A stretch of DNA of 64,000 nucleotides from Minisyncoccota bacterium (GCA_018062965.1 JAGORG010000001.1:71488-135487); one strand, 5' to 3'; counted from the stretch's first letter, positions 27,043 through 44,976 are shown. Numbers and translations are program-made. The notes: a model not told the origin generated them from the sequence alone.

Positions 27043-27393
27043 TCATGGTTTCGGGAACTTGCTTGGGTAGTTGGTGCAGCCAGTGTATCGTCCGCTTCCT
27101 TCCACCGTTCTCCATTTTCCGTTGACCAGGGTTTCCACTGTCCACCAATAGGACATGGGCCCCCATCCCATTTTTTTGTTGAATGAGAACATGAACAGCT
27201 TCCGTCCATCCGGTTCGACCTTGATGTCGTAGACACCTTTGAAGGAGTATTGGAGTCTGGGGTCGTCCTGATGAATGGTGAGATACGGGCGATCAAAACC
27301 ATATTCCATCTCTTTGTCTCCCAATGCCTCGATCTCCTCCCTGAAGTCGACCGGATTGAAACCCATTTCTACCAGCTTATTCGTGAGCGTCAT
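27043..27393 (-). CDS. Hypothetical protein (116 aa), GC-rich, divergent from TrmB-like regulator 1
   Basis: About 50% GC. No recognised motif. Confidence 0.5.
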   Translation of the reverse strand: MTLTNKLVEMGFNPVDFREEIEALGDKEMEYGFDRPYLTIHQDDPRLQYSFKGVYDIKVEPDGRKLFMFSFNKKMGWGPMSYWWTVETLVNGKWRTVEGSGRYTGCTNYPSKFPKP

Positions 27394-27607
27394 CTCTATC
27401 TCCTCAATGTGCTTTCGAATCGCCTTTGGCTTGTGCCAGTAGTGTGCTTCGAATCTGGTACCAGAATATCACGACTATACTTGACAGTAAAAAGTTAGAT
27501 TGTATTAAATTATATTTGTCGTAATAGTTATATATTTAAAGGACATTATTGTGCTCCAATATGTCGGGAAAACTTTACAAAATGTATGAAATGTGTATAC
27601 TTGAGGT

Positions 27608-28411
27608 ATGGAACTACGTAAAAACCTTTCAATTTTAGATCTTTCACGTAAGGAAGAAAAAGTGCTTTTGGCTATTATCGAAGGCTGTAGAACCCCTCTT
27701 TCTATATCAAACGAGACTAAAGTGACTCGTCCAGCTGTGTACGACATACTTCTTAAGCTAAAAAAGCGTGGATTGGTGCAGTCTAAAATAAAGGAAGGTA
27801 AAAAATCGTGGCATATCGTAGACCAACGTGAGCTTGCATCTTCTTTGTATGAAACAAAGAAAGTCTTACTCGGATTAAGTGATGGACGAGAAGAAGTGGT
27901 TGGGGTGGATGACAGCCTTATTGTGCTTCATAAAGGAAAGGAAGCGGTGAACAAAATACTTCATGAGATATTTCAATCTCGCCATCATGAACGATTCTTA
28001 GGCTTAACCGGCACCTCTCCTATTTCGGACTGGATGACCGTTATGAATGTAGACGGCATAGGCATAATCAATAGAACTATAAAGAAAAACAGTCTCATTA
28101 CCGAACTCGTTGCACCCGAGAAGTGGGTAGAAGAGCACTTTAAGGCTATGGGAAAAGAGTGGGCGGCTGACTACGAAGGTCGAACAGCATCCACTGTATA
28201 CATTGAGAAAAAATATTTTGATCACGGGGCACAGATGTTTGGTTTTAAAGACGCTTTATATCTCCTGGCGCTCGGTGATCAGCTCATTATAGAAATCCGT
28301 CACAGCGCTATTCAGAAAATGATACTTTCTATGTATGCGTTTATGAAAGATCACGGAGAGAAGATTGATGCAAATAGACTGTTACGTGAATTGATGGAAA
28401 AAGAATCTTAA
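27608..28411 (+). CDS. TrmB-family-like HTH transcriptional regulator (paralog 1)
   Basis: N-terminal pattern L..EEKVLLAIIEG..TPLSISNETKVTRPAVYDILLKLKKRGLV resembles the TrmB winged HTH. 267 aa, like the other two paralogs. Confidence 0.6.
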   Translation: MELRKNLSILDLSRKEEKVLLAIIEGCRTPLSISNETKVTRPAVYDILLKLKKRGLVQSKIKEGKKSWHIVDQRELASSLYETKKVLLGLSDGREEVVGVDDSLIVLHKGKEAVNKILHEIFQSRHHERFLGLTGTSPISDWMTVMNVDGIGIINRTIKKNSLITELVAPEKWVEEHFKAMGKEWAADYEGRTASTVYIEKKYFDHGAQMFGFKDALYLLALGDQLIIEIRHSAIQKMILSMYAFMKDHGEKIDANRLLRELMEKES

Positions 28412-28418
28412 GCAATAC

Positions 28419-28450
28419 AAAACCGGCATCGTAGATGCCGGTTTTTGTAT
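28419..28450. terminator. Bidirectional terminator
   Basis: aaaaccggcatc-gta-gatgccggtttt. Confidence 0.65.
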
Positions 28451-28487
28451 GTACTGTTGATTATAAACTATCAACCATTGACTATAT

Positions 28488-28835
28488 CTAGTGCTTTGTG
28501 TCGCAACGAATTGCAAGCATGATACCACCGATGATAGCGATATTTTTGAGAGCTGCAACGAGTTCAGTTACCTTGAAGTGAACAAGAAGTGTTGCAATCA
28601 CAGTAAACGCGATAAGTGTCCACCCAGTTTCTTTTACTTTGTATCCCCAAGCAAAAGCAAGTGCCACTGGTACTTCCACGATAATAACGAGAAGCGCAGC
28701 AAGTGTTGCTAGAGGCACATTAAGAGAATCTACAAACCCTACAGTTCCAGTAAAGTCCATAGCCTTCTGAACCCCTGCAACTACAAAGAGTAGAGCGATA
28801 AGTGAACGAGCAATCATTCCGTAATGTTTTGACAT
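28488..28835 (-). CDS. DoxX-family membrane protein
   Basis: LIALLFVVAGVQKAMDF...VEVPVALAFAWGYK is DoxX-like. Start placed at MSKHYGM rather than the ORF-track Met. Confidence 0.7.
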   Translation of the reverse strand: MSKHYGMIARSLIALLFVVAGVQKAMDFTGTVGFVDSLNVPLATLAALLVIIVEVPVALAFAWGYKVKETGWTLIAFTVIATLLVHFKVTELVAALKNIAIIGGIMLAIRCDTKH

Positions 28836-28923
28836 AAAAACGTAGAGTATAAAATACTTATAATAGCGGTGTCGCACAGTGTGCAACCCTACGCCCTCTA
28901 GTATAGCTCTTCTTCTAGCTGTA

Positions 28924-29619
28924 TTACCAGGTGGTAGCGAGTATAGATGTTAATGCAGCAACTGCGGCCGTGTCTGCTTTTAGTGTAGTTTCTGTTAATC
29001 GTAGAGATACAAAGCCTTTTTCGGCAAAAGCCCCCTCTTCCTCCTCTGTCCATCCGCCTTCAGGTCCAATCCACAGGGCGCATGTTGATATATCTGACAC
29101 AGTGTGGGTTTGTGCGCGCAAACTGGCAACAATATTCACCAACCCGCTTGTTTTTTGAAGGGCCTCATCAAATGTACAGATAGCTTCAATGATGGGTACT
29201 GTCCCCCGCCCTGATTGCTCAGCAGCTTCTGTGACGATAGCCTGCAAACGTTCCATATTAAGGTTTTTCTTTTCACTTCGCGCTGAAAGTATAGGTACTA
29301 TAGATGTAACACCAAGCTCGGTCGCCTGACGAGCAATAGTTTCAAAGGTATCTTTTTTAACAACCGCCATAACAAGAGTTATGTTAGAAGATGGAATGAT
29401 ATGTGGCTGTGTCGTTACTTGAGAGAGCGTAACTGATGTTTTTGTGTGTGAGGAAATACGATACACACTGTCTTCTCCCGCTATGTGTGGGGAAAACAAC
29501 ATAACCTCGTCACCTACTGTATATCTAAAAACATGTATCCACTGATGCACCAATTTTTTTTCCACTACAACAATCTCTTCACCAAGGGGTTTGTTTATGT
29601 AGAAGCGATGTAATCGCAT
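28924..29619 (-). CDS. rsmE: 16S rRNA (uracil1498-N3)-methyltransferase RsmE
   Basis: MRLHRFYI...GDEVMLF N-terminal PUA-like region and C-terminal SPOUT ...IGPEGGWTEEE. Confidence 0.85.
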   Translation of the reverse strand: MRLHRFYINKPLGEEIVVVEKKLVHQWIHVFRYTVGDEVMLFSPHIAGEDSVYRISSHTKTSVTLSQVTTQPHIIPSSNITLVMAVVKKDTFETIARQATELGVTSIVPILSARSEKKNLNMERLQAIVTEAAEQSGRGTVPIIEAICTFDEALQKTSGLVNIVASLRAQTHTVSDISTCALWIGPEGGWTEEEEGAFAEKGFVSLRLTETTLKADTAAVAALTSILATTW

Positions 29620-30110
29620 TACTCACTACACTACGAGTATCAAAGAGACATTGCAAGAGTGTAGAAAAGACAATCTTTATAAAGACAAATACAAACCTAT
29701 CTATATAAAAGACAGTTATCCACAGGTAAGGGCTTGCATATAAAAGACATATAAAATACAATTATGAGGTAGGTAAATGACGTTGAAATAAACCCTCCCC
29801 TGTTTAAGGGGTCACACAGATTTCTAACGACTCTTTACCCAGTATGTTCTTTCAAAAAGCGGTTCATAAAAATCATCATTCGATTGCCGCACACTCAATA
29901 CCATAGTTCGCTCTTTTATTAAGTTACCCAGGTTGTAGATAACCCATGTAGCTCAAAACTCTCGAAAATCCCCTGTATTCTGGCTGCGAAGCACCGCTTC
30001 GTATCCAGATCGCAGGGGATTTTTTTATTGTAGACCTCATATTTCATATACAAACAAATAAAAAACCGAGCGCCGTAGCGCCCGGTTGGGTTGTTGAGGG
30101 GCTAGTCCCC

Positions 30111-31352
30111 TCACTTTTTCTTTCTTTGCTGGCCCTTGCTTTTGTTCAGGTGGTTCAAAACAGCCTGATCAATGACTGCTTGGCTTGCGCCTGCTGCCTT
30201 GAGAGCCGCAGCGAGATCGGCAACGGCTTTTAATTCGCCTTGCATGAGCGCCAATTCAGTTTCAAGCCTTTTTCTTTCAGCTTCTGATCGTATTTCCTGA
30301 CGTTTTGCCTTGGCTTCCTCGATTTGTTTTTCGAGGTCTTCTTTGGTCTTCTTGGCTGGAGGGTACTTCTTGGTAAACCAATACATAATCCCACCAATTG
30401 CAAGCAAGACCGCACCCGACAAACCGATCAGAAGAGGGTATCCTAATAGACCGATTTTGTAGAGTATGAAGCTTACAAGGAACAGGCATACACCTGCAGT
30501 TGCAGCCCCTTTGGCGTAGCTCCCTGATTGTTTGTACACATGATAGCTTGCAAGGCCTACCAAAAATGCACAACCTGTCAGTATGAGCATGAGTCCGGCT
30601 TCGACCTCGTCGTATGCGAGCATGCCGCCAACAACAACCAGGATACAAGCTACCGAAACGGGCCCAAGCTTACTCAAGGCCTCGCCGACCGCAGCCTTGT
30701 TCTTGTGAGCAAAAAAACATGCAATAGCTGCAAGGATCAAGCACGCAAAGAGCGTAATGCTTTTGCTGGCAAACAGAAGAGCTGCCACAATGAGTCCACC
30801 ACCCCAGAAAATCAAGGGTTTTTGCTCGGCATGCCTGGCGACAGCTTCGCCCTGAGCTTTTGCCCAAGGTGTGGCCGTGTCCCAGGCGGCGTTTGCCCAT
30901 TTTCCTGCCGTTTCCTGCGCCTTTTCGGCTCGGTCTCGCCAGGAACTGTTGCTACCACCTTGCGGCGGCTGAGTCCCTGAGGACGTTTCGCCGTTTTTCG
31001 GGGTCACATCATCGACACTGTCAACATTCACAAACTTTCCATCGACAAAGACCCTTTTGGGGCGACTTGTGTTGGAAGATCTGGTTGTTTGTCCGCCGGA
31101 AGCAAAACTCTCTTTGATTTCCCTCCCCACCTGACGAACCTTGTTCATCAGTATGTTCACGATTGGAAACGGGAGGACTCCTGTGATAAGCAGGGCACAC
31201 GCAAGTGTTGTATCAGTTCTGCGATACATCAAGAATTGATGTATGACATAGTCAGCAACCGTATAGGTTGCAAACCAGATAGCTGCGATAGCGAGACAGA
31301 GGAGCGCAATGTGCCCCACCTTTTTCAAAATGGTTTCCATGAGGATCTCCAA
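30111..31352 (-). CDS. Polytopic hypothetical membrane protein with C-terminal coiled-coil tail, GC-rich (about 55%)
   Basis: Multiple TM segments. C-terminus EDLEKQIEEAKAKRQEIRSEAERKRLETELALMQGELKAV. Composition differs from neighbours. Confidence 0.6.
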   Translation of the reverse strand: MEILMETILKKVGHIALLCLAIAAIWFATYTVADYVIHQFLMYRRTDTTLACALLITGVLPFPIVNILMNKVRQVGREIKESFASGGQTTRSSNTSRPKRVFVDGKFVNVDSVDDVTPKNGETSSGTQPPQGGSNSSWRDRAEKAQETAGKWANAAWDTATPWAKAQGEAVARHAEQKPLIFWGGGLIVAALLFASKSITLFACLILAAIACFFAHKNKAAVGEALSKLGPVSVACILVVVGGMLAYDEVEAGLMLILTGCAFLVGLASYHVYKQSGSYAKGAATAGVCLFLVSFILYKIGLLGYPLLIGLSGAVLLAIGGIMYWFTKKYPPAKKTKEDLEKQIEEAKAKRQEIRSEAERKRLETELALMQGELKAVADLAAALKAAGASQAVIDQAVLNHLNKSKGQQRKKK

Positions 31353-31575
31353 AGGTTAAATTCAATGTTCATTATGATATAAGCATCTCTGCTCGTATCA
31401 CGGCTACTTATACTTATATAACAAAAACATACTTTTGTCAATCGTTTCACCTCAAGCATTTAATGGTATAGTGCGAATATCCAGTACGACAGAAACTCAG
31501 TATTGCTCAGTATTTTTAAAGAATTTTGTATTTGAATGTGTATTACTAGTGACTACTAATTATTGACTATCAACT

Positions 31576-32160
31576 ATGCTGATTCCAACTGTTATTGAAA
31601 AAAGCCAATTTGGCGAACGCGCCTTTGATATTTATTCACGCCTCCTCAAAGAGCGTATTATCTTTTTGAGTGATGAGGTTAATCATCACACAGCTTCTGT
31701 TGTTATTGCACAGATGCTTTTTCTTGAGTCTGAAGATCCGAAAAAGGATATTACGCTCTACATCAACTCCCCTGGTGGTGAAATCCAGTCAGGTTTGGCT
31801 ATTATCGACACTATGCACCACATCAAACCAGATGTTTCTACAGTGTGTATCGGCATGGCAGCTTCTATGGGTGCGATGATACTCTCGCAAGGTACAAAAG
31901 GTAAGCGATTTGTGCTTCCAAACGGCGAAGTGATGATTCATCAGCCACTTTCTGGTGTTGAAGGTCAGGCTTCTGATATTGAAATAAAAGCAAAACACAT
32001 CCTTAAAATTAAGGAAAAGTTGTATGCAATGCTTGCGGATGCAACAGGTAAAACAAAAGCCCAAGTTGAAAAAGATGGTGACCGTGACTATTGGATGAGT
32101 GCTGACGAAGCAAAGAAGTACGGTATCGTTGACCAGGTTCTAAAACCAAAGACAAAATAA
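31576..32160 (+). CDS. clpP: ATP-dependent Clp protease proteolytic subunit
   Basis: INSPGG...[11 protein letters not shown]...HQP are the catalytic-triad contexts. Confidence 0.95.
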
Positions 32161-32191
32161 TCCCATCCCCTAGGGATCCCATAACCTACGT

Positions 32192-33685
32192 ATGGAAAAG
32201 CTCATCATAGAAGCAGGACTCATAGCCGGCGGAGTTGGCGCTTTGGTTGGTTTCTTTGCGCGTGACTATTACGCAAAGATAAAAACAGGTAATGCAGAAC
32301 AAAAAGCAGATAGTATTTTGCTTGAAGCAAAAAAGGAGGCTCATAAAATAGAAGAAGAAGCCCTCACTCGTGCGCAAACGATACGTAGTGAGCTTGAAAA
32401 AAGCGAAGACAGGCTACAAAAACAAGAAGAGCGTATTGATAAACGCGAACAAGAGGTCGCGCGTGATCTCGAAACGCTACGAACTAAGTCCAAAGAACTA
32501 GAAACTCTTCAGGACGCTCTTGATGCACAAGAAAAAGACACAGTTCGTGCCCGCGAAGCTCTTGCAGGGATTACTCAGGAACAAGCACGTCACATGTTGT
32601 TTGAAAAAATAACTCGTGAATCTGAAGAAGACTTGAAATCTAGAATGCTCAAACTCTCTCGAGATGGAGAAGAACGCTTTATGGAGCAAGCGCGAGATAT
32701 GTTGGTAAACAACGTCTACCGTATTGCAAATGCAAACGTTTCTTCGTTTACAACGAGCACTGTTGAGATTGCAGATGAAGAGGTAAAAGGCAAAATCATC
32801 GGGAAAGAAGGACGTAATATCAAAACCTTTGAACGTCTTGCAGGTGTTGAATTGCTTGTCGATGAACATCCACAAGCAATAGTTGTATCGTGTTTTGATC
32901 CAGTTCGCCGTGCGATTGCAAAGAACGCACTCGAAATGCTCATCAAAGACGGTCGTATTCAGCCGATCAAAATAGAAGAGTATATCGAGAAAGCAAAAAA
33001 AGATATCGGTGTATTTATGAAAAAGAAAGGAGAAGAAGCAGTACTTGCGTGTGGGCTTCTTTCTATTCCAGAACCACTGATCCCTCTTATTGGTCGGCTG
33101 TATTTCCGAACAAGTTATGGACAAAATGTTCTTGATCACTCAGTTGAGATGGCACACATCGCAGGCATGCTTGCACAAGAGCTCGGTGCAGATGTGCAAG
33201 TAGCAAAAGCTGGAGCGCTTTTGCATGATATCGGAAAAGCCGTTGACCATGAGATTCAAGGTACACATGTTGAAATCGGTAGAAAGATTTTGGCAAAGTA
33301 TGGCGTGGATGAACGGGTGATACTTGCTATGCAGGCGCATCATGAAGAGTATCCATATGAAACTATCGAATCAGTGCTTGTGCAGGTTGCAGACGCAGTA
33401 AGTGGTGGACGCCCTGGCGCACGTCGAGATACTGTTGATAGGTATATTACTCGCCTTTCTGATTTAGAAGCCATTGCACTCGCATTTTCAGGCATTGAGC
33501 GTGTGTATGCACTACAAGCTGGGCGAGAAATACGTGTATTTGTTACTCCTACCCTTGTATCTGACATGCAGGCACGGGATTTGGCGCGTCAGATCGCACT
33601 TCGTATCGAACAGGAGCTTAGATATCCAGGTGAAATAAAAATAAATGTTATACGTGAGAGCCGAACGATAGAGTTTGCAAGATAA
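32192..33685 (+). CDS. rny: Ribonuclease Y
   Basis: N-terminal TM, coiled coil, KH GKIIGKEGRNIKTFERLAGV, and HD domain LLHDIGKA. Confidence 0.9.
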   Translation: MEKLIIEAGLIAGGVGALVGFFARDYYAKIKTGNAEQKADSILLEAKKEAHKIEEEALTRAQTIRSELEKSEDRLQKQEERIDKREQEVARDLETLRTKSKELETLQDALDAQEKDTVRAREALAGITQEQARHMLFEKITRESEEDLKSRMLKLSRDGEERFMEQARDMLVNNVYRIANANVSSFTTSTVEIADEEVKGKIIGKEGRNIKTFERLAGVELLVDEHPQAIVVSCFDPVRRAIAKNALEMLIKDGRIQPIKIEEYIEKAKKDIGVFMKKKGEEAVLACGLLSIPEPLIPLIGRLYFRTSYGQNVLDHSVEMAHIAGMLAQELGADVQVAKAGALLHDIGKAVDHEIQGTHVEIGRKILAKYGVDERVILAMQAHHEEYPYETIESVLVQVADAVSGGRPGARRDTVDRYITRLSDLEAIALAFSGIERVYALQAGREIRVFVTPTLVSDMQARDLARQIALRIEQELRYPGEIKINVIRESRTIEFAR

Positions 33686-33721
33686 AACAAGAAGCGCGCC
33701 CGTCGGGCGCGCTTCTTGTTT
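33684..33721 (+). terminator. Intrinsic terminator after rny
   Basis: aagaagcgcgcccg-tc-gggcgcgcttctt plus T-run. Confidence 0.7.
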
Positions 33722-33906
33722 AGACAATAGCATCTACATGTTGGTTTTGACTTTTCCACACGGTGTTGTATTATGACTTGCCAAAAAACCCAAGGAGTAT
33801 ATACTTTTTATAGCCATCACAAAGCATTCTTGCTTTGCGGTGTGAATTACAAACATCTTATCAATGTCGTGGTCCTAGGAAAACACGATATTACATTCAC
33901 AACTAT

Positions 33907-34179
33907 ATGAACAAAGTAGGCCTCGTTGAAGCAGTACACGCAGTTCTCGGTGGTACAAAGGTACAAGCTGAAGCTGTCGTAGATACAGTTTTCGATTCAA
34001 TCGTTAAGACTCTTAAGAAGGGTGACGAAGTTGCAATCGCCGGTTTCGGTAAGTTCGTAGCAAAGAAGCGTGCAGCACGCGATGCTCGTAACCCAAAGAC
34101 AGGTGAAACTGTAAAGGTTCCAGCAACAACAGTTCCAAAGTTCTCAGCCGCAAAGGCACTTAAGGATGCAGTTAAGTAA
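33907..34179 (+). CDS. hup: DNA-binding protein HU
   Basis: MNKVGLVEAV...GFGKF...RNPKTGE matches HU. Start is the internal Met of the 33835 ORF. Confidence 0.9.
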   Translation: MNKVGLVEAVHAVLGGTKVQAEAVVDTVFDSIVKTLKKGDEVAIAGFGKFVAKKRAARDARNPKTGETVKVPATTVPKFSAAKALKDAVK

Positions 34180-34226
34180 TTAACGCCATTCTCAATCAAA
34201 AACCCGCCACATGGCGGGTTTTTGAT

Positions 34227-34598
34227 TTATGCAAATCTTTCTCTTCTATAGTCTGTTCTATCAGAATCATAAAAATCACTAGTTCCTTCTATGATTGGTT
34301 TTTCTATGTCAGAGTCGTTCGCGGCTGGTAGGTTTCCATATCTTCCAAACTTTTCATCAAGGAGATGATCTTTTTGTGTTTGGAGTTCTGCTAGATCTAT
34401 ACGAGCATGTAGTAGATCTTTTGCTCGACGTTCGTTAGGTTCAGCCTTTTGCATGCCTTCAAGAGACTGAATAAAATCTTGCGCTTTCGTTATCTTATTA
34501 TTTATTTCTAGAATCTGCTCATCAAGTGGAGTAAGAGCTTCCTGTTGTGTAGGCTTAAACTCCCCCTCACCCGCAATCATTGTTTCTTTAAATTCCAT
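34227..34598 (-). CDS. Hypothetical coiled-coil protein
   Basis: 123-aa ORF with terminators on both sides. Confidence 0.5.
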   Translation of the reverse strand: MEFKETMIAGEGEFKPTQQEALTPLDEQILEINNKITKAQDFIQSLEGMQKAEPNERRAKDLLHARIDLAELQTQKDHLLDEKFGRYGNLPAANDSDIEKPIIEGTSDFYDSDRTDYRRERFA

Positions 34599-34751
34599 AT
34601 ATACAAAGTATATCTCATACTTTTGTAAAGTTGTAGGATCTGTTCAAGTACAACACGGCTGACTCATTACAGGCATGAACCGCTCCAGGTGATACATCTT
34701 CAGAATTTGAAATCCCCCAGAGAAATAATCTGGGGGATTTCAAATATTTTG

Positions 34752-34822
34752 TGCGGCGTAAGGGAATCGAACCCTTGTCCCCTGCTTGGAAGGCAGGTAT
34801 TCTACCACTAAACCAACACCGC
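34752..34822 (-). tRNA. tRNA-Gly (anticodon TCC)
   Basis: Cloverleaf folded by hand: acceptor GCGGTGT/ACGCCGC, anticodon loop CTTCCAA, T-arm GGGTTCGATTCCC. Confidence 0.85.
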
Positions 34823-34861
34823 GATAGAAGTCATTCTACTATATCTCGCTATATTTTTCCA

Positions 34862-36233: not shown

Positions 36234-36304
36234 GCGGTGTTGGTTTAGTGGTAGAACACGACCTTGCCAAGGTTGAGACAGGAGTTCGATTCTCCTACGC
36301 CGCA
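36234..36304 (+). tRNA. tRNA-Gly (anticodon GCC)
   Basis: Acceptor GCGGTGT/ACGCCGC, anticodon loop TTGCCAA, T-arm GGAGTTCGATTCTCC. Confidence 0.85.
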
Positions 36305-36700
36305 CAGGAATTCAATAAAGACAAAGGCTTTATTTGTGTGTAGGAGAATCGAACTCCGAAGGTGTCTATATTTTAAAGGAGATAAGCGACTATTAAAATA
36401 AGACACTTCGAGCTGGTAACCCAGCGAGAAGATGAGAGATTCTTAGCCGTATCCGTTACACGAGAAACGTTAAGAGGGGGTCCGCCAGGATTTTCTCCCA
36501 CAAATACATTTTTGTCGTCACAAAAATGTTTCACGGTCCGCTCCTCACTGTTTTTCTTGCTAGAAAAACCCTAAAGGACTGCGGTTTCAAAAGATTGACT
36601 ACAATCTAAGAAACCGGGAGCATGTTCCGGACTTTCGAATCCTGACGCATCACACGCAGGTGTGATGCTGCGGAAGCACAATACATGCTTCGCAATATTG

Positions 36701-38323: not shown

Positions 38324-38388
38324 AAGACATTCAAAGGTTGAACATTGTCCTTTATAAGAGACAAAGTTGTTTCTGATATACTTTCCTC

Positions 38389-40305
38389 ATGAACTTCTCT
38401 TTGGATGATCTCCATCCACTTACATTTTCGCTTCTCAAAAAAAGGGGAGTAGAGGAAAAAGATATGATGGATTTTTTGAATCCTTCATACGAAAAGCATA
38501 TAGGGGATCCGTTTGGGATATATGGGATGGATAAGGCGGTTAGTCGTATCGTAAATGCGATTCGAAACGGTGAAAAGATTTGCGTATACAGCGATTACGA
38601 TTGCGACGGGATTCCGGGTGGGGTGCTCTTGCGAGAATTCTTTGATGGTATTGGGTACCCGGTAGATATGTATGTGCCACATCGCCACAACGAAGGGTAT
38701 GGTGTGCATATTCATGCGATAGACGCGCTTAAAGCAAAAGGGGTTACGCTTATCATCACTGTTGATTCAGGAATTACCAATATCGAAGAAGTTGCGTATG
38801 CAAAAACTGTAGGTGTTGACTTTGTTGTTACTGATCACCATTTACCAATTCATGAAGAAGGGAAGGGTCAAGTGGTCCCTGATGCTGTTGCAGTGCTTAA
38901 TTCAAAACAAGATCTCTGCACGTATCATGATGATATGTTGTGTGGTTGTGCGGTCGCATGGAAACTTGCGTGTGCGATTCTGATGAGGTTGCGTGAATTG
39001 CAAGTACGCGAAACTACGGGTTTAGATGGCACGCATACATTTTCTGCTGAAAATGTTACTCACTTTCAGCTGCCCGCTTCCGAGAGTCCATCTAAACCCG
39101 TAGTTTCGCTAGAAAATGTGATTGATATTGTTTCAAAACTTCCTGTCGGCTGGGAAAAGTGGATGCTTGATCTCGTTGGTATTTCTACTATTGCGGACAT
39201 GGTGCCACTTCAAAAAGAAAACCGCGCACTTGCTCACTATGGACTTAAGGTTTTAAGAAAAACAAAGCGCCCGGGACTTTTACATATTTTTAACGAACAG
39301 CGCATGCGAAAGGATTATCTAACCGAGGATGATATCGCGTTTACTATTGCACCCCGCATCAATGCTGCGTCTCGTATGGGCACACCGATTCAAGCGCATC
39401 ATATGTTATATGAACGTAACTCTGCGAAAGCTGAAAGCTACGCCCGAGACCTTGAGCTTTTAAACACAGAACGCAAAGCCGGAGTGAAGGATATTATTTC
39501 TACACTTTCGTTTGATCATGCGGTCTACCAAAATGATGTGATCGTAGTAGGGGATATGAGTTGGGGGCCGGGAATACTTGGACTCATCGCTCAAAACATC
39601 ATTGATGAAACAGGAAAGCCTACATTTGTATGGGGTCGAGGCGGAGCCGAGAGTTCTGAGCCTGTCGAAGAACCAAGGTCGAGGAGCGATGAGCGACGAA
39701 GAGTTCCGCAGTCAGCAGACGAAGGAACACCAGAGGTTGCCGCTAAAAAAAGTAACAACGAAGCGGTTATAAAAGGGTCATGTAGATCTCTCGGAGATGT
39801 GCATGTCGTAGAACTCATGGCGCGCGTGGGACATGACGTTCTTACTCATTGGGGTGGGCACGAAGGGGCTGGCGGATTTGCTCTCACTGTAGAAAATGTT
39901 CCACGATTGTCGGATGCATTAAATGAAGCTGTGAAGCATGTGGTGATACAAGAAATAGGGAGCCAAGAGATTGCAATTGACGCAGATTTACAGATGGACG
40001 ATGTGCACGATGTTACCTACAAAGCGATTGAGCCGCTCGCGCCATTTGGAGAGGCGAACCCAAAGCCTATATTTAGTTTTGGAAATGTAACACCACTAGC
40101 CACTAAACGATTCGGAAAGAAAAATGAGCATTTAGAAATTATTTATCCGACGACCAAAGGCGGAAAAGTAAAAGCCATCCAGTTTTTTACTAAAAGTGAA
40201 ACAGAAGAAAAAGCTGTAAAGCCCCACACACTTCTCGCTCATCTTGAAAAGAGTTACTTTGCAGGAAAGACAGAGCTGCGGTTGAGGATTGTAGACATTC
40301 GCTAA
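38389..40305 (+). CDS. recJ: Single-stranded-DNA-specific exonuclease RecJ
   Basis: DHH motifs VYSDYDCDGI...ITVDSG...TDHH, DHHA1 region, and a low-complexity insert around 39640-39760. Confidence 0.9.
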   Translation: MNFSLDDLHPLTFSLLKKRGVEEKDMMDFLNPSYEKHIGDPFGIYGMDKAVSRIVNAIRNGEKICVYSDYDCDGIPGGVLLREFFDGIGYPVDMYVPHRHNEGYGVHIHAIDALKAKGVTLIITVDSGITNIEEVAYAKTVGVDFVVTDHHLPIHEEGKGQVVPDAVAVLNSKQDLCTYHDDMLCGCAVAWKLACAILMRLRELQVRETTGLDGTHTFSAENVTHFQLPASESPSKPVVSLENVIDIVSKLPVGWEKWMLDLVGISTIADMVPLQKENRALAHYGLKVLRKTKRPGLLHIFNEQRMRKDYLTEDDIAFTIAPRINAASRMGTPIQAHHMLYERNSAKAESYARDLELLNTERKAGVKDIISTLSFDHAVYQNDVIVVGDMSWGPGILGLIAQNIIDETGKPTFVWGRGGAESSEPVEEPRSRSDERRRVPQSADEGTPEVAAKKSNNEAVIKGSCRSLGDVHVVELMARVGHDVLTHWGGHEGAGGFALTVENVPRLSDALNEAVKHVVIQEIGSQEIAIDADLQMDDVHDVTYKAIEPLAPFGEANPKPIFSFGNVTPLATKRFGKKNEHLEIIYPTTKGGKVKAIQFFTKSETEEKAVKPHTLLAHLEKSYFAGKTELRLRIVDIR

Positions 40306-40372
40306 GTTTTAAATAAAAAGAAACTGCACGTTGATGTGCAGTTCGGCCGAACTGGTTTCAGGAGTAGTGATT

Positions 40373-40651
40373 TCACCAAACCCACACACTAGTCTCACAC
40401 TCTAAACATGGCTCACTAAGAGTTCCGTTTACAGCCGGTTCAGCAGAAACCTTCCACCGCTCACCTTGCTTTTTCATGAGTTCAAAGTCTTCAGAGTTGA
40501 TAACTCCCTTGAGAATCAGTGCCCTCTCTACTCGGTCACGAGAGAAGATGGCAAAATCTCGCTGGTTTCGAACATAGAGATCTGCCATCTCATGAGTAGA
40601 CTCTCCTGTGAAAACATCAATCACGAAATAATTTATCATCTTCGTTTTCAT
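40373..40651 (-). CDS. Hypothetical small protein (92 aa), last gene of the module-2 array
   Basis: Preceded by repeat module R3 plus an SD. C-terminal CLECETS. Confidence 0.4.
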   Translation of the reverse strand: MKTKMINYFVIDVFTGESTHEMADLYVRNQRDFAIFSRDRVERALILKGVINSEDFELMKKQGERWKVSAEPAVNGTLSEPCLECETSVWVW

Positions 40652-40667
40652 TTTCTCTACTCTCCGG

Positions 40668-40735
40668 GTTGTGAATGAACTAAACTTTAAAGATTTACGA
40701 TATCATAATCATAAACCTTATAAAGTGGGCGATGT
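40668..40735. repeat. Repeat module R3 (variant spacer), followed by hairpin gggcgatgtgtttcaatcgccc
   Basis: Shares the 5' GTTGTGAATGAAC and 3' CTTATAAAG ends. The hairpin is near-identical to the one after R7. Confidence 0.65.
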
Positions 40736-40755
40736 GTTTCAATCGCCCGATCCCA

Positions 40756-41025
40756 TTAACGGGAAAGTTTGCCGCAGGCCACGCCTGCCTCGAAGAGCTT
40801 TTGGAGAAGTGCTTCGAGTGGAACCTTTCCGGTCTTGCTGGCTTCGATTGCAAGAGTGCCGATAGCCGCCAAGGCCTGGATACCAGAGTCCTTGCTTGCA
40901 AGTGGTATAAAGGCGACAACTTTTTCATCACCTTCCTTGCAGTCCCTCTCCACGTCTCTACGGCTGCCGTAATCAAAGTTGAGAGCGTGCGAGCCATCCT
41001 TCGATTGTGTTACTTGTATGTGCAC
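40756..41025 (-). CDS. Hypothetical small protein (89 aa, GTG start), GC-rich (about 55%)
   Basis: Preceded by R4 with aagggaa-N7-GTG. Overlapping alternative ORFs on both strands make the frame choice uncertain. Confidence 0.4.
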   Translation of the reverse strand: MHIQVTQSKDGSHALNFDYGSRRDVERDCKEGDEKVVAFIPLASKDSGIQALAAIGTLAIEASKTGKVPLEALLQKLFEAGVACGKLSR

Positions 41026-41041
41026 GGATATTTCCCTTCAA

Positions 41042-41098
41042 GTTGTGAATGAACTGAATCTTTACAAATCCTCAAACGAATTTGAGAACTTGATAAAG
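41042..41098. repeat. Repeat module R4, followed by hairpin gctgaagagtaacgtccttcagc
   Basis: Near-identical to R1 over 57 nt. Confidence 0.7.
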
Positions 41099-41290
41099 TG
41101 CTGAAGAGTAACGTCCTTCAGCATGACGGCGATTTCCTGACTAGGATCACGTTCCCCGAGCCTATTTTGGGATTACTGCAAAATATCAGTAGTTGTCCCA
41201 GCCACCACGCTCGAAACCGTATTCCTCAAGGAGTTTTATTGTCCTCTTGTTTCCGGTCATCAACTTTCGGTCGATCGGTGGCTCATGTTC

Positions 41291-41332
41291 TTTGAAGGTT
41301 CTCAAATATTGCTACTTAAGAACCTTATAAAG
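41291..41332. repeat. Repeat module R5 (3' half only), followed by hairpin gctgaagagtgacgtccttcagc
   Basis: Contains the palindrome half-sites GTTCTCAAAT...CTTAAGAAC and CTTATAAAG. The hairpin is near-identical to the one after R4. Confidence 0.55.
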
Positions 41333-41395
41333 TGCTGAAGAGTGACGTCCTTCAGCGTGACGGTGATTATTGAGAGGGATCACATTCCCCCAAGC

Positions 41396-41827
41396 CTACT
41401 TCGCAACCACCGCGAAATGCCAGAAGGCACCCCAGTCACCGCCCCAGCCCCAGAAGCCCATTTCCCGTTCTCCGTCAGCGTAGCTCCACAGTGCGGGGAC
41501 GCTGCCGTAGGAACGGCAGACTGGGTCTGGTGCAACGATGTGGCACTTCCTCTGCACCTCGGGGTAATTCACTCCAAAGAGCAGAAGTTCCGGGAGTGTC
41601 GCGCAACGCAGACCCTGGCGCGCGAGCTCCCCCACCACATTTTCGGAGCGGATGAGGTGTCCGAATTGATGTAGATAGGGCATTGCCACCTCACCACTAC
41701 CTTCGATCGAGTGGTTCCTTTCGGCAAACAGCTTGAGTATTATGTCTGCGTTGTTATACTTTCCAGCGAGGATCATCTCTTTCGCAGACATGTTGTAGTT
41801 GAACTGAATCATTTGAGCTTGTTCCAT
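41396..41827 (-). CDS. Hypothetical protein (143 aa), GC-rich (about 58%), paralog of 43583..44014, divergent from TrmB-like regulator 2
   Basis: Shares MEQAQ.I.F.YNM..KEMI...ATLPELLLF with the paralog. Otherwise unrecognised. Confidence 0.6.
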   Translation of the reverse strand: MEQAQMIQFNYNMSAKEMILAGKYNNADIILKLFAERNHSIEGSGEVAMPYLHQFGHLIRSENVVGELARQGLRCATLPELLLFGVNYPEVQRKCHIVAPDPVCRSYGSVPALWSYADGEREMGFWGWGGDWGAFWHFAVVAK

Positions 41828-41982
41828 TTTGAATCTCCAATCAATGTGCTTAGTTCAGAACACCTGAACTTTCTGATAACATTATGCCATTTTAAAACAC
41901 ATCTGTCAATATAAAGATGACAGTATTATATTACAAAAAGTATTGCAAATTATGAGTAATATGATATAGTGTAATATATATT
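41828..41982. promoter_or_regulatory. Divergent promoter region with two palindromes (AGTTCAGAACACCTGAACT and CTGTCA-N9-TGACAG)
   Basis: Inverted repeats at 41851-41869 and 41902-41922, between divergent start codons. Confidence 0.4.
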
Positions 41983-42786
41983 ATGACAGTTAAAAATGAA
42001 GCGTTGCTTACAAATGAGGAAAATAGCTTAGAAAATGCTCGAAAGATGCTTCTTTCATTTGGTCTTTCAGACAGTGAATCCAAGGTTTATATCTATTTAT
42101 TAGAGCGCGGAGGGGAAATCGGAGGGTCAAAGATAGCAATTGGGGCGAAGCTGCATAGACAATATGTGTATTTGGCGCTTCCGCATCTGATGCAGTTGGG
42201 ACTAGTTGAGGAAATTCCTCATGGAAAGCTCAGTAAATACAAAGCAAATGCTCCGACTGAGATAGAAAAGATTGCAAAGAAGCGAGTTGTTGAAGCAGAA
42301 GATCTCGTAAAGGAGTTACAGAAGTTTTCAAAAGTAGGACATGAGCAAGACTTTGAAGTCTATGTTGGGGACACGGCAATACAGAAATACGAGGTTAATT
42401 GGGTAAAAGGTGTCAAGGATCACGAAGAGCAGTATATTATCGGAGGAAATACGAAAGGCTTTACCGAAATGATGGGGGATGCACTTGATGAGTATTTGGT
42501 AACTGAGTCTAGAAAGAAAATAACAACGTATTATCTGGGACACACAAGCGAACGGGGATTGTGGTCAGATACGCTTCTGGCGCAGAATGATTTGCGTGCT
42601 AAGTTTTTAGATACTTTACCACTTGGCGTGTCCCACTTTGTTGTACGAAAAGGGCATGTTGCATTCTTTACGTTTCTTAAGCCATCACTTTTGTATGTGA
42701 TCAAATCCGAAGCAGTATCAGAAAACTACAAGCAATTCTTCATGATGTTGTGGGAGATGGCGAGCGACTCGGTCGCGAAGATGTGA
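41983..42786 (+). CDS. TrmB-family-like HTH transcriptional regulator (paralog 2)
   Basis: LLSFGLSDSESKVYIYLLERGGEIGGSKIAIGAKLHRQYVYLALPHLMQLGLVEEI is TrmB-type wHTH. C-terminus FFMMLWEMA is shared with paralog 3. Confidence 0.65.
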   Translation: MTVKNEALLTNEENSLENARKMLLSFGLSDSESKVYIYLLERGGEIGGSKIAIGAKLHRQYVYLALPHLMQLGLVEEIPHGKLSKYKANAPTEIEKIAKKRVVEAEDLVKELQKFSKVGHEQDFEVYVGDTAIQKYEVNWVKGVKDHEEQYIIGGNTKGFTEMMGDALDEYLVTESRKKITTYYLGHTSERGLWSDTLLAQNDLRAKFLDTLPLGVSHFVVRKGHVAFFTFLKPSLLYVIKSEAVSENYKQFFMMLWEMASDSVAKM

Positions 42787-42893
42787 ATCAGCAGATTCAT
42801 GGCTTGGCCGCAAGGAGACAGTAGTCCTAGGACGCAAGGGGATTAATTTAAAAAGAAAACCGCACATTGCTGTGTGGTTTTTTGCTGTGAAGC

Positions 42894-43097
42894 TCACAGT
42901 CTGTTTGGGCTCATTTGACCCGCACGGTACAGAAAGTACCCGTGCACAAGGATTAGTATTCCGTAGAACGCCAATCCTGCGACCAGTGTCAGATGGTCGA
43001 AGCCCTCAGAGTGAATGAAGGGCGGATAATACTGCAAGCCGTATCCAAGAAATACGAGTACGGCGATGCTGTAGAGTGCGAGCAGAATGCGAGACAT
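42894..43097 (-). CDS. Small 2-TM membrane peptide (67 aa), copy 2
   Basis: Start reassigned to MSRILL with SD ggaggaatacc-ATG. About 90% nt identity to 26243..26446 including the 3' flank. Confidence 0.65.
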   Translation of the reverse strand: MSRILLALYSIAVLVFLGYGLQYYPPFIHSEGFDHLTLVAGLAFYGILILVHGYFLYRAGQMSPNRL

Positions 43098-43113
43098 GGT
43101 ATTCCTCCGGTAG

Positions 43114-43172
43114 TTGTGAATGAACAATCTCTACAAATCCTCAAATATTTCTAGTTGAGAACTTGATAAAGA
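43114..43172. repeat. Repeat module R6, followed by hairpin cctcgacatgtgtcgagg
   Basis: GTTGTGAATGAAC...TTGATAAAG. Directly 5' of the SD of the 43097 gene. Confidence 0.7.
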
Positions 43173-43456
43173 CCTCGACATGTGTCGAGGGTGCTTGTCA
43201 TTGAACCCGAGGATCTACCGTTTAGGTTGATCGACGAGGTCTAACATTGCCTATCAAGCGGCAACGCTTGCAACCATTCAGTCACAAGAAGTGTTACATG
43301 CTCTGATTCTTCAGTTCAGATTTTCAGCACGTTTTGAGTACTTTCTTACTCGAATACATGTACCGTTAAGTTCCCATTCGTTCGGAGTTTCATTGTCCGG
43401 GGTTGTTAACTGCGACCGGTAGAGCCGACCATCTTTTGCAAGTGGATTTCTTTTTC

Positions 43457-43512
43457 GTTAGTGAACAATCTCTACAAGTTCTCAAATATTTCTACTTGAG
43501 AACTTGATAAAG
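43457..43512. repeat. Repeat module R7 (5' end degenerate), perfect palindrome CAAGTTCTCAA-N11-TTGAGAACTTG, followed by hairpin ggcgatatgtttcaatcgcc
   Basis: No intact ORF immediately downstream on the minus strand. Confidence 0.65.
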
Positions 43513-43582
43513 TAGGCGATATGTTTCAATCGCCCGGTTGAGTCCGACTTATATTCCGCGTGGACTAGAGTGCGGGTGTTGT

Positions 43583-44014
43583 TCATTTCTGAACAACGGC
43601 TAAGAACTCATCCTGTCTTAAGGAACAGTCCCCTGTGAGGACCCTCTCCTTGCCCCCACAAACTTTCCACAAGAATCCTCCTGGATATCTCCGATGGTTC
43701 ATGGGCTCCATTGTTGCAAATCTTGACAATGTAGGATTGTGCGCCGCAAAAAGAAGGAGTTCGGGCAGTGTTGCTGAACGAAGTCCTGCTCCAGCTATTT
43801 TTCCCAAAATAGCCGCCCCTTCATCCCAGCGTGTTTCCCGGCATTGGCCATAGGATTGCAAGTGAGGCAAATCTACATCAATTTCACCCGCGCCTTGAAG
43901 GACATAGTTTAAAGCATCCCTCTCCCACGTCCTATCTATGACAAGGTTTGCCTCCCCAATCATCTCTTTAATGGTCATGTTGTAGGTGAAGATGATAGCC
44001 TGAGCTTGTTCCAT
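43583..44014 (-). CDS. Hypothetical protein (143 aa), paralog of 41396..41827, divergent from TrmB-like regulator 3
   Basis: Same length and conserved blocks as the paralog. Confidence 0.6.
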   Translation of the reverse strand: MEQAQAIIFTYNMTIKEMIGEANLVIDRTWERDALNYVLQGAGEIDVDLPHLQSYGQCRETRWDEGAAILGKIAGAGLRSATLPELLLFAAHNPTLSRFATMEPMNHRRYPGGFLWKVCGGKERVLTGDCSLRQDEFLAVVQK

Positions 44015-44181
44015 TTTGTTTCCTTAATGTACATTTAGTTCGGGAACCTTTCCTGAACTTTCTGGTAATATTGTACAACTTTGAAACACATTTGTCAATC
44101 ATAAAATTGACATTATTTTATTACATTATACATTGTAAAACAATGAAAATATGGTATACTAACAATAAATAATTTGACACT
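44015..44181. promoter_or_regulatory. Divergent promoter region with palindromes (AGTTCGGGAACCTTTCCTGAACT, TGTCAAT-N6-ATTGACA)
   Basis: Inverted repeats at 44037-44059 and 44093-44112. Parallels the 41828-41982 region. Confidence 0.4.
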
Positions 44182-44976
44182 ATGGAAATTATAAAACAGA
44201 AAAAGTCTAAAAAAGAGGTAGAAAACCTGTATGTTGAGAAACTCGCGGAACTTGGTTTTTCTAAAGCGGAGAGCCTTATTTATGTATATTTATTGGAAAA
44301 AGGGTCTGAAGCGCTAGTTTCTAAGATAGCGGTCGCTACAGGTATGCATCGTCAGCAGGTGTATCTTGTACTCCCTAAGCTCGTAGAATCTGGAGTCGTT
44401 GAAGAGGTTAAAGAAGGAAAACTCACTAGATATAAAGCTAGGCCGCCGCAGAGTCTGGAAAGGGTTGTGAGGCGTAAGGTTACTCTGGCGGAAGATGTAG
44501 CTCAGGAGCTCGAGAAGATTTCAAAACTTGGTAACGAACAGGAATTTGAAGCGGTTATTGGAGAAAAAGCATATCGAGCTTACGATATAGAGCGCGCAAA
44601 AAATATGAAAGAAGGGGATGTTCAGTACATCATAGGCTCCTCCTCTGATGAATATCTGGTAGCGATGGGGGATGCGTACGAAAAGGAGTATGTTCCAATC
44701 CTTGCCTCAAAGAATGTAAAAACTTATTATATTGCGCCGGAAAGTCAAAAGTTTAGAAAGGATTATGTCAGCGAGCGTCAGCACTTCGAAGTAAGAGTTC
44801 TTTCTAAAATGAAACAGAATTCCATTACTACCATGATTCAGGGAGATAAACTTATATTCTATTCAAACGTGAAGCCGCTCAGTATCTATATTATTACGTC
44901 TAAGAAAGTTGCAGAAAGTTATAGGGAATTCTTCATGATGCTGTGGGAGATGGCAGAAGAAGCAGAAAAGAAATAA
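44182..44976 (+). CDS. TrmB-family-like HTH transcriptional regulator (paralog 3)
   Basis: YVEKLAELGFSKAESLIYVYLLEKGSEALVSKIAVATGMHRQQVYLVLPKLVESGVVEEV. C-terminus FFMMLWEMAEE. Confidence 0.65.
   Translation: MEIIKQKKSKKEVENLYVEKLAELGFSKAESLIYVYLLEKGSEALVSKIAVATGMHRQQVYLVLPKLVESGVVEEVKEGKLTRYKARPPQSLERVVRRKVTLAEDVAQELEKISKLGNEQEFEAVIGEKAYRAYDIERAKNMKEGDVQYIIGSSSDEYLVAMGDAYEKEYVPILASKNVKTYYIAPESQKFRKDYVSERQHFEVRVLSKMKQNSITTMIQGDKLIFYSNVKPLSIYIITSKKVAESYREFFMMLWEMAEEAEKK

Follow-up and report, generated by a model that had tools for sequence, protein, structure and literature searches.

The repetitive extragenic palindromic and bacterial interspersed mosaic elements (REP/BIME) of enterobacterial operons and the RNase III sites of the phage T7 early genes are intercistronic hairpins, possible processing sites or 3'/5' stabilizers that set differential expression. 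BrxR-type winged helix-turn-helix (HTH) regulators sit upstream of diverse defense systems, giving regulator-headed defense islands. Bacteria of the candidate phyla radiation (CPR), or Patescibacteria, have tiny genomes with few regulators, and their accessory genes mostly have no known function. We analyzed a stretch of 64,000 nucleotides (nt) from the genome of a Minisyncoccota bacterium (GCA_018062965.1 JAGORG010000001.1:71488-135487), referred to as the window and the basis of all window counts given below, which contains three loci in which a regulator with a TrmB-type HTH is encoded divergently from small genes accompanied by copies of a two-hairpin module. These loci are regulator-headed variable gene islands combined with intercistronic structured RNA. 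A preliminary description of the same DNA had recognized the regulators, the small genes, and the modules and had taken the modules for sites akin to the palindromes between the divergent genes. In the literature searched, we found no paper linking TrmB with CPR or Patescibacteria and none describing a structured RNA motif of this kind in Parcubacteria.

The window (GC content, 43%) resembles a genome of the Parcubacteria (CPR) type and carries the housekeeping genes tig, clpP, rny, cca, recJ, rnhA, and comEC; its nearest DNA relatives are metagenome-assembled genomes of Candidatus Nomurabacteria and Taylorbacteria. The three loci, at positions 26198-28411, 40314-42786, and 42850-44976 of the window, share one layout: a TrmB-HTH regulator of 264 to 267 amino acids (aa) on the plus strand, a divergent small gene on the minus strand, modules and payloads, and a terminator. 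On the 3' side of the first small gene lie one to three modules, interleaved with small genes or with stretches of 150 to 270 nt that hold no credible open reading frame (ORF). Every locus is closed by a canonical hairpin plus T-run terminator, and canonical terminators were found only at the locus ends (all on the minus strand: an intrinsic terminator with a 10-bp stem and T-run at 26204-26229 in locus 1, another at 40321-40344 in locus 2, and a terminator-like hairpin and T-run at 42850-42881 in locus 3, which belongs to repeat family D10, common to the terminators of loci 1 and 2). The ORFs of the preliminary description, i.e., the regulators of ~265 aa and the small genes, were found where it had placed them, each regulator being divergent from a small gene (116 aa, 27043-27393; 143 aa, 41396-41827; and 143 aa, 43583-44014). 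Its small-gene arrays amount to one or two genes per locus, plus the ORF-less stretches (26555-26733, 26837-27042, 41135-41289, and 43191-43469).

On the gene strand, the module consists, in order, of a GC-rich hairpin (hp1), a second hairpin (hp2), a tail reading (A)GUUCAUUCACAA, and a Shine-Dalgarno sequence and start codon. hp2 begins 0 to 1 nt after hp1 and has the form CUUUA-U-(stem of 12 to 14 bp)-loop-(stem)-UARAG, which amounts to a hairpin of 17 to 19 bp with one bulged U. Matches to the module core CTTTATCAAGTTCTCAA numbered six, compared to 0.46 expected, all on the minus strand and all inside the three loci. A covariance model recovered seven modules in the window, every one in a TrmB-headed locus, and all 14 copies in relatives (14/14) were likewise in TrmB-headed loci. 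The claim that the modules are confined to the three loci within the window was borne out, and dispersal independent of gene context, of the REP/BIME type, was observed neither in the window nor among the relatives' copies.

With module instances added from six other genomes or metagenome contigs, hp2 was paired in 98.8% of cells in 16 sequences and in 98.1% in 20 distinct sequences, and 7 of its 17 pairs had changed on both sides. None of 500 shuffles matched the observed pairing or covariation score, and sliding the partner by 1 to 3 columns gave pairing of only 27 to 58%. Entire stems had been replaced with complementarity kept (AAGUUCUCAAA/UUUGAGGAUUU, AAGGUUUAUGAU/AUCGUAAAUCUU, and AAAGUUUCUGAA/UUCGGAAACUUU), and loops ranged from 3 to 9 nt. 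G·U pairs, which correspond to A·C on the opposite strand, filled 46 of 313 cells, and the sense RNA was predicted to be more stable than the antisense RNA in 17 of 18 copies, by ~4.5 to 13 kcal/mol. hp1 was present in 20 of 22 modules and belonged to at least six unrelated sequence families, all ending 0 to 1 nt before CTTTAT; in one relative (L018), the hp1 stem was kept despite a 44-nt insertion in its loop. The distance from the end of hp2 to the next start codon was 25 to 34 nt in 13 of 16 cases, and that from the upstream stop codon to hp1 varied from 5 to 206 nt. On this comparative sequence evidence, the module is a strand-specific RNA structure and not an operator.

Other identities for the module were considered and rejected. 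Rfam offered no known family, since at the gathering score it found only four tRNAs in the window, with nothing relevant at an E value of ≤5 in 40300-44200. No acceptable -35/-10 pair was found in or after hp2 in any variant, and no module contained a minus-strand sigma-70 promoter. Scans of viral contigs for phage copies gave one chance match inside a coding region, which the covariance model rejected.

All seven window copies are on the minus strand. In locus 1, module 1a (26734-26836; covariance model score, 71.3 bits) has a 9-bp hp1 at 26796-26836, hp2 at 26751-26794, and the tail AGTTCATTCACAA at 26734-26746, with predicted folding energies of -18.1 kcal/mol for the sense and -13.6 kcal/mol for the antisense RNA; module 1b (26463-26542; 71.6 bits) has hp1 at 26520-26542, hp2 at 26480-26518, ending 33 nt before an ATG, and its tail at 26463-26475. 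Locus 2 has three copies. Module 2a (41290-41356; 52.5 bits), with hp1 at 41334-41356 and hp2 at 41290-41332, carries the stem variant AAGGTTCTTAA/TTGAGAACCTT; module 2b (41043-41123; 71.7 bits), with hp1 at 41099-41123, hp2 at 41060-41098, and the tail at 41043-41055, is 34 nt from a GTG start; and module 2c (40669-40748; 64.3 bits), with hp1 at 40727-40748, hp2 at 40685-40725, and the tail at 40669-40681, has a wholly different compensated hp2 stem, AAGGTTTATGAT/ATCGTAAATCTT, found as the same variant in relatives L007 and L008. In locus 3, module 3a (43470-43535; 72.8 bits) comprises hp1 at 43514-43535 and hp2 at 43470-43512, and module 3b (43114-43190; 71.2 bits) comprises hp1 at 43173-43190, hp2 at 43129-43171, and the tail at 43114-43126. 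hp1 is followed by (A/T)CTTTAT, and that of module 3b is the only one of the seven window copies to pass a terminator scan rule that the locus-end terminators pass.

The regulators were identified through Pfam model PF01978 (gathering threshold, 25.6 bits), which scored 33.2 bits for regulator 1 (27608-28411, plus strand; 267 aa, with a C-terminal domain that could not be assigned), 38.9 bits for regulator 2 (41983-42786, plus strand; 267 aa), and 45.7 bits for regulator 3 (44182-44976, plus strand; 264 aa). These matches place all three in the TrmB HTH family, and the family models place them outside the sugar-sensing TrmB and TrmBL1 groups: their scores against the NCBIfam TrmB and TrmBL1 equivalog models were 18 to 33 bits, compared to cutoffs of 500 to 650, and no full-length match was found to TrmB/TrmBL1, which reach ~340 aa with the sugar-binding effector domain. 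Past the HTH, regulator 3 did align to the TrmB/TrmBL1 models (residues 13 to 230; E values of 3e-5 to 3e-8), far under the cutoff, and searches of the C-terminal domain against solved structures in the PDB, by single sequence and by profile, returned HTH proteins only. Regulators 2 and 3 are paralogs (38% identity; E value, 5e-64) and share the C-terminal block FFMMLWEMA, as had been noted; the description of three paralogs went too far for regulator 1, which showed no BLASTP similarity to regulator 3 and aligned to the regulator 2/3 profile (hhalign) over 63 HTH columns only. The recognition helix HRQxVY is invariant across the regulator 2/3 family, and regulator 3 has 50 homolog clusters among the matches listed at an E value of ≤1e-5, all of ~250 to 280 aa. 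A weak PADLOC match linked the regulator 3 HTH to a defense candidate (PDC-M05A; E value, 3.4e-5). Three TrmB-HTH paralogs also occur within 5 kb in a related sequence (L009 1-4777), where one is followed by a RhuM/Fic-domain protein and a YafQ-like toxin gene lies 3.4 kb farther on. The listed GTG start of the RNase H gene next to regulator 3 overlaps the end of the regulator gene by 34 nt (44943-44976); the Pfam match of RNase H begins at residue 18, and its real start is therefore probably a downstream ATG (MKLTIY...).

The top sigma-70 matches of the region (11/12) were the cargo promoters in the divergent intergenic regions, which are near consensus (TTGACA-N17-TGnTAnAAT). In region 2 (41828-41982), the cargo promoter TTGACA-17-(TG)CATAAT (41881-41909, minus strand) has the palindrome CTGTCA-N9-TGACAG over its -35 element (41903-41923), the regulator promoter is TTGCAA-16-TATAGT (41943-41970, plus strand), and a hairpin in the 5' untranslated region (5' UTR) reads AGTTCAG-N5-CTGAACT (41852-41870); this region is conserved in L008, L013, L005, L009, and L001. 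Region 3 (44015-44181) has the corresponding cargo promoter TTGACA-17-TACAAT (44070-44098, minus strand), palindrome TGTCAAT-N6-ATTGACA (44093-44112), regulator promoter TTGTAA-16-TATACT (44133-44160, plus strand), and 5' UTR hairpin (44037-44059). The three palindromes quoted here were present as first described. The regulator promoters of both regions follow TTGYAA-16-TATAST, and the two regions are 75 to 82% identical in DNA sequence, though their regulators are 38% identical. Region 1 (27394-27607) contains a regulator promoter, TTTACA-16-TATACT (27574-27601, plus strand), and the cargo promoter/5' UTR, and it is 75% identical to the equivalent region of L007 over 186 nt up to the ribosome-binding site (RBS), despite a different first cargo gene. 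When eight intergenic regions from six genomes were aligned, TTGAC at -35 was invariant and the extended -10 was conserved, a TGTCA-N8/9-TGACA palindrome lay over the -35 element with extra TGTCA copies beside the regulator start, and a hairpin with compensated variants (AGUUCAGG...CCUGAACU) stood at the very start of the transcribed region, 22 to 26 nt before the ATG. The palindromes over the cargo -35 element are likely operators, and we infer from the similarity of regions 2 and 3 and the invariant HRQxVY helix a shared operator specificity of regulators 2 and 3, which would repress a very strong promoter.

Relatives among the Nomurabacteria and Taylorbacteria keep the regulator, the promoter region, and the modules at the same chromosomal slots, and the cargo differs. 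At the shared slots rsmE-doxX-TrmB and recJ...rnhA, the regulator and a 70 to 85% identical intergenic region accompany unrelated cargo. L007 has the same rsmE-doxX-TrmB order as locus 1 and the same 5' UTR up to the RBS, followed by a gene for a 151-aa protein of the type of cargo A2 (the 143-aa protein of locus 2), a module, a 99-aa gene, a noncoding stretch (nc1a) 91% identical to that of locus 1, and a module. L008 has kept A2 (86% identical) and its hp1; the hp2 that follows is of another variant, and beyond it come an 86-aa gene, a module, and an unrelated peptide of 70 aa with two transmembrane (TM) helices. In L013, L017, and L018, the recJ...rnhA slot is occupied by one or two TrmB loci whose cargo differs. 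The same B-type cargo opens the array in L017 and closes it in L018, and small two-TM peptides end many loci (B1 and B3 in the window; L003, L005, and L008). Only the A2 family and B1/B3 recur among the 30 cargo proteins compared. In the Taylorbacteria locus L003, a gene for a 489-aa radical-SAM-like protein (2880-4349) begins 2 nt after the two-TM cargo gene; it has CxxxCxxC and a Pfam Radical_SAM score of 27 bits, just under the cutoff. The comparison of loci in relatives that the preliminary description had proposed thus gave the outcome that it envisaged, i.e., cargo turnover under a conserved regulator, and its picture of acquired cargo under a regulon stands as far as the conserved regulator platform, the turnover, and the foreign-looking composition are concerned; the module as operator has to be given up.

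The cargo genes, all on the minus strand, have GC contents of 44 to 55% and third-codon-position GC contents (GC3) of 0.43 to 0.66, compared to 40 to 41% and 0.38 to 0.42 for the regulators and a GC3 of 0.31 to 0.38 for housekeeping genes; the contrast reported earlier is real but smaller than the range of 50 to 58% given for the cargo. Locus 1 encodes A1 (27043-27393; 116 aa; GC, 0.50; GC3, 0.64), which has no family and is not in the A2 family, and B1 (26243-26446), a 67-aa protein with two TM helices predicted by hydropathy. Its paralog B3 in locus 3 (42894-43097) is 67 aa from an RBS-led ATG at 43097, has two TM helices, and is 89.6% identical; the B1/B3 family is very narrow, with five clusters. 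Locus 2 encodes A2 (41396-41827; 143 aa), B2a (40756-41025; 89 aa; GC, 0.53), and B2b (40373-40651; 92 aa), the last two without a family, and locus 3 encodes A3 (43583-44014; 143 aa). Searches of the small cargo proteins against Pfam, NCBIfam, and PADLOC gave no match, and PHROGs gave one weak match only (A1; E value, 0.0065); no cargo protein matched a toxin, antitoxin, or defense model in Pfam, NCBIfam, or PADLOC.

The other payloads are noncoding: nc1a (26837-27042), nc1b (26555-26733; no credible ORF), nc2 (41135-41289; just a 24-aa ORF without a good RBS), and nc3 (43191-43469), all on the minus strand. Small ORFs within them were rejected as genes, since the 29-aa ORF of nc1a has no RBS and is interrupted in L007 by a 1-nt indel, and the remaining ones are short and likewise without an RBS. 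Across ~215 nt, nc1a and its counterpart (L007 3575-3788) are 91% conserved between genomes, with 1-nt indels and no RBS-led ORF, while the flanking cargo differs, and the 3' end of nc1a forms a nested hairpin whose inner stem is compensated (CTGGTCAC.GTGATCAG versus CTGACTgtgtAGTCAG). nc1a may be a small RNA payload. Outside the three loci, a gene for a 413-aa multipass membrane protein with a C-terminal coiled-coil-like tail and no Pfam family (30111-31352, minus strand) also has composition above the host level (GC, 50%; GC3, 0.51) and may be another acquired gene.

The preliminary description had stated that no target protein matches a recognizable family, which proved wrong for the 143-aa genes. 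A2 and A3 share ~100 N-terminal residues (40% identity), and a profile built from them and two homologs retrieved 2,004 cluster representatives, mostly of ~190 to 200 aa; A3 matched the family over residues 3 to 127 (hhalign probability, 98.7), with a divergent C terminus. The profile matches P0055 (E value, 1e-40) and P0070 (E value, 2e-19), which are encoded at loci with bAvd and a reverse transcriptase (RT), and in the template/variable repeat (TR/VR) pairs of those loci 18 of 18 and 16 of 17 mismatches, respectively, fall at template-repeat adenines. Because two of its members have such pairs, we take the A2/A3 family to be a variable-protein family of diversity-generating retroelements (DGRs). 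An AlphaFold model made with 102 family sequences (predicted local distance difference test [pLDDT] score, 92) predicts a C-type-lectin-like (CLec) fold for A2 and A3. The other cargo was evaluated for membership in the same family and rejected, hhalign being negative for 26 of 30 proteins. By homology, A2 and A3 are orphan binders of the DGR variable-protein family, now under predicted TrmB-type control.

These observations can be joined in one model, in which each locus is a platform that expresses small genes open to exchange, under the control of its regulator; taken as a whole, with all of its steps, we consider the model about evenly balanced between being right and being wrong. The near-consensus sigma-70 promoter of the cargo points away from the gene of a TrmB-type winged-HTH protein. 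A dimer of this regulator would bind TGTCA-N8/9-TGACA over the -35 element and the further TGTCA copies near its own promoter, repressing the cargo and itself until a ligand acts on the C-terminal domain. Since the modules contain no promoter and a canonical terminator occurs only at the locus end, the cargo would be read as one polycistronic RNA. This RNA starts with the 5' hairpin and, as covariation demonstrates, carries the standard hp1/hp2 module between payloads, so that every cistron would be preceded by a hairpin at about the same distance. We suggest that the module acts as an RNA-level junction, through processing by RNase III or RNase Y (the RNase Y gene, rny, is present in the window at 32192-33685) and/or partial termination at hp1. 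The upstream segment would thereby be capped at its 3' end by hp1, and the downstream one would have hp2 as both 5' cap and leader; the junction would then set segment stability and the expression ratio. Judging from the cargo differences at conserved slots, the conserved 5' UTR, modules, and terminator may also serve as homology anchors for cargo swapping. The cargo itself comprises orphan DGR variable-protein homologs, small two-TM peptides, other small proteins, and conserved noncoding stretches. Its role, the weakest step, is most likely in conflict or host interaction, a role favored by the strain-variable cargo of foreign composition, the link to a receptor family of the DGR type, the presence of membrane peptides, and the neighbors of the Fic/RhuM and YafQ-like kinds in L009. 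A bolder version of the model, which we put forward as a rather doubtful proposal, is an integrase-independent cassette system in Parcubacteria: the two-hairpin junction, standard 5' UTR, and terminator would be both expression/processing adaptor and recombination anchor, which would allow a platform under a TrmB-type repressor to capture, express, and exchange small genes of foreign origin, receptors taken from DGRs among them, and would give a minimal genome a way to keep a variable conflict or host-interaction repertoire.

Several points weigh against the platform model. Processing, repression, and the response to a ligand are all steps that we infer, and hp1 could be merely a weak terminator. 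No ORF follows four of the modules collected, of which three are window copies, and a pure role as translation leader therefore cannot explain all copies. Locus 1 shares the modules, but no TGTCA palindrome was identified there. Nor do the breakpoints of cargo exchange always coincide with a module: nc1a and L007 are homologous from ~10 nt past the stop codon onward, and no module stands at that point. One recognized family among ~30 cargo proteins is the basis for the cargo function. Lastly, a 55% identical homolog of regulator 3, P0019 (L011/L012 4001-6689), is encoded directly upstream of tpiA-pgk in the same orientation, without divergent cargo and without modules, and is the only glycolysis-linked member seen. 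The preliminary description had named sugar-type TrmB orthologs beside transport or glycolytic genes as the finding that would count against it; apart from P0019, the ~13 other places of the ~14 examined have divergent small genes of no recognized function and a conserved divergent promoter region.

The alternative that survives best, itself unlikely, is that the cargo forms toxin/immunity or toxin-antitoxin pairs, each of a soluble protein (A) and a membrane peptide (B), with hairpins that only tune their ratio. Such pairs would suit the two-TM peptides at the ends of many loci, the putative tight repression of a strong operator-bearing promoter, the Fic/RhuM and YafQ-like genes near the TrmB paralogs of L009, and the weak PADLOC match of regulator 3. 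Yet the cargo proteins matched no toxin, antitoxin, or defense family, locus 2 has no membrane peptide, and A and B are not co-conserved, B being found with A1, A3, or other proteins or alone.

Distinctly unlikely is a second alternative, in which the modules are attC-like single-strand recombination sites and the loci integron-like arrays, or integrase-less attC clusters, served by a recombinase encoded elsewhere. The promoter-proximal strings of promoterless, unrelated cassettes with foreign GC, some of them noncoding, recall such arrays, as does the position of the B cassette, which is first or last in different genomes; however, an HTH regulator occupies the intI position, the gene lists of the loci examined hold no recombinase, the last cassette has no module, and no copies were found in the viral contigs scanned. 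The hairpin is strand specific and conserved in structure, has a single extrahelical base, and varies in its terminal loop, and different hp1 families are joined to hp2 at the same point, CTTTAT; but RYYYAAC/GTTRRRY cores are missing (the module reads CTTTAT(C)AAGTTCTCAAA...TTTGAGGATTTGTAAAG), hp2 has half the length of attC, and the fixed 25 to 34 nt to start codons and abundant G·U pairs favor an RNA role.

We regard as improbable a third alternative, that the loci are remote targets of a DGR elsewhere in the genome and that the GC-rich hairpin after the 143-aa genes is a DGR target-recognition hairpin. DGR clade 2 is restricted to Patescibacteria (PMC8144416). A2 and A3 have the CLec-type fold and belong to a family that includes members with verified TR/VR pairs next to bAvd and RT, but A3 has lost the family C terminus, and A2 differs from its 86% identical homolog throughout the gene, not just in the C-terminal variable region. 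A GC hairpin does lie 39 to 47 nt after the A2/A3 stop codons; the same hairpins, however, follow unrelated genes. A DGR within the window itself was rejected, since the 64 kb contain no YxDD reverse transcriptase ORF and no template-repeat copy of any cargo gene.

The original proposal, that the module palindrome (half-sites AGTTCTCAA) is the DNA operator of the TrmB-like regulators and that each small gene has its own regulated promoter, is very improbable on the present evidence. It had in its favor the palindromic form of the module, its confinement to TrmB loci, and the AGTTC that it shares with the intergenic AGTTCAG palindrome. The resemblance between half-sites goes no further than AGTTC, though, and the matching element is the transcribed 5' UTR hairpin and not the TGTCA palindromes. 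For a protein that binds DNA as a dimer, the half-sites should be conserved and a set distance apart, whereas the spacing of the arms varies from 3 to 9 nt and the stems change by compensatory substitution, up to replacement of the whole stem sequence. Where pairing is imperfect, the sense strand has G·U and the opposite strand A·C, as fits a hairpin in the sense-strand RNA. No sigma-70 promoter follows or lies in the modules, and identical modules are used in loci whose regulators show no relationship beyond the HTH. Finally, that the regulators are ordinary sugar- or metabolite-responsive TrmB orthologs with incidental small neighbors is hardly credible, given proteins of ~265 and not ~340 aa, no sugar transporter or glycolytic gene in the window loci, and divergent small genes with a conserved promoter region at ~13 of 14 regulator places, even though the TrmB HTH, the subthreshold alignment of regulator 3 past it, and the tpiA-pgk neighbors of P0019 point that way.

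Other features of the window lie outside these loci. The recJ coding sequence (38389-40305) contains GCGAAACTACGGGTTTAGATGG and, after a spacer of 58 nt, its exact reverse complement; this inverted repeat with arms of 22 nt (39008-39109) spans 102 nt in frame and occurs once in the window. RecJ is 638 aa here, compared to 566 to 601 aa in relatives, and the repeat could be a palindrome inserted in frame, in the manner of the Rickettsia palindromic elements. The trigger factor gene (24994-26094) encodes Trigger_N (residues 1 to 149) and Trigger_C (residues 211 to 358), with a His/Asp-rich stretch (HQHDHDHNHEGHDHHDHEGHDHSHDHEH; ~25440 to 25560) in the usual place of the peptidyl-prolyl isomerase domain. 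A 73-nt "81% complementary inverted repeat" (I1) was dismissed, as it consists of two tRNA-Gly genes (TCC and GCC) on opposite strands (34751-34822, minus; 36234-36305, plus).

The recurring, recognizable arrangement of a regulator, a near-consensus promoter with its predicted operator, uniform RNA junctions, and cargo that can be exchanged marks the places of variable genes in CPR bacteria. The module is a new RNA motif with strong covariation, for which a covariance model allows direct searches, and the loci connect stand-alone proteins of the C-type-lectin fold, members of a DGR target family, with a transcriptional switch. Should the junction prove to be a processing or stability element, it would be a small natural "insulator" separating cistrons; should it be a recombination anchor, the loci would follow an integron-like logic without an integrase.

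Compared with described regulators, those of the three loci are most like the TrmBL2 type of the Thermococcales (~264 aa) in having an N-terminal PF01978 winged HTH, a length of ~265 aa, probable dimeric binding to a palindrome, and plausible divergent autoregulation. They differ from the TrmB family in that they score far under the cutoffs of the TrmB, TrmBL1, and TrmBL2-type models, their C-terminal domain has no detectable sequence relative among solved structures, the host is a CPR bacterium, and the targets are variable small genes and not sugar or glycolytic genes. A2 and A3 are homologous to DGR variable proteins (Mtd, TvpA, DUF1566/Lcl-C, and FGE-like) with verified TR/VR pairs and share their fold class and the region of the GLRxATLxELL motif, but they lack the N-terminal extension of 50 to 60 aa typical of the family, have no nearby RT, Avd, or template repeat and no hypervariation limited to the variable region, and stand under a TrmB-type regulator. 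Like integrons, the loci have a single promoter beside a divergently oriented gene and a series of unrelated cassettes that lack promoters of their own, are foreign in composition, and in some cases are noncoding; the cassettes are separated by structure-conserved, strand-specific imperfect palindromes with an extrahelical base. Unlike attC arrays, they have no integrase, no R/L core sites, a hairpin of ~40 nt, a fixed distance to the next start codon, pairing rich in G·U that indicates RNA, and no module after the last cassette. The module resembles REP/BIME elements and the T7 RNase III sites as a conserved hairpin between cistrons of what would be one transcript; in contrast to both, its unit comprises two hairpins, with CUUUAU...UARAG as the invariant base and one U bulged out, and in contrast to REP/BIME elements, it is restricted to TrmB-headed loci (7 of 7 copies in 64 kb) instead of being dispersed. 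The regulator belongs to another family than that of the BrxR-type islands, the cargo proteins are tiny, and no defense family was detected among them, but in both cases a conserved, ligand-responsive winged-HTH regulator and its operator, the ligand response and the operator being predictions here, stand before variable cargo.

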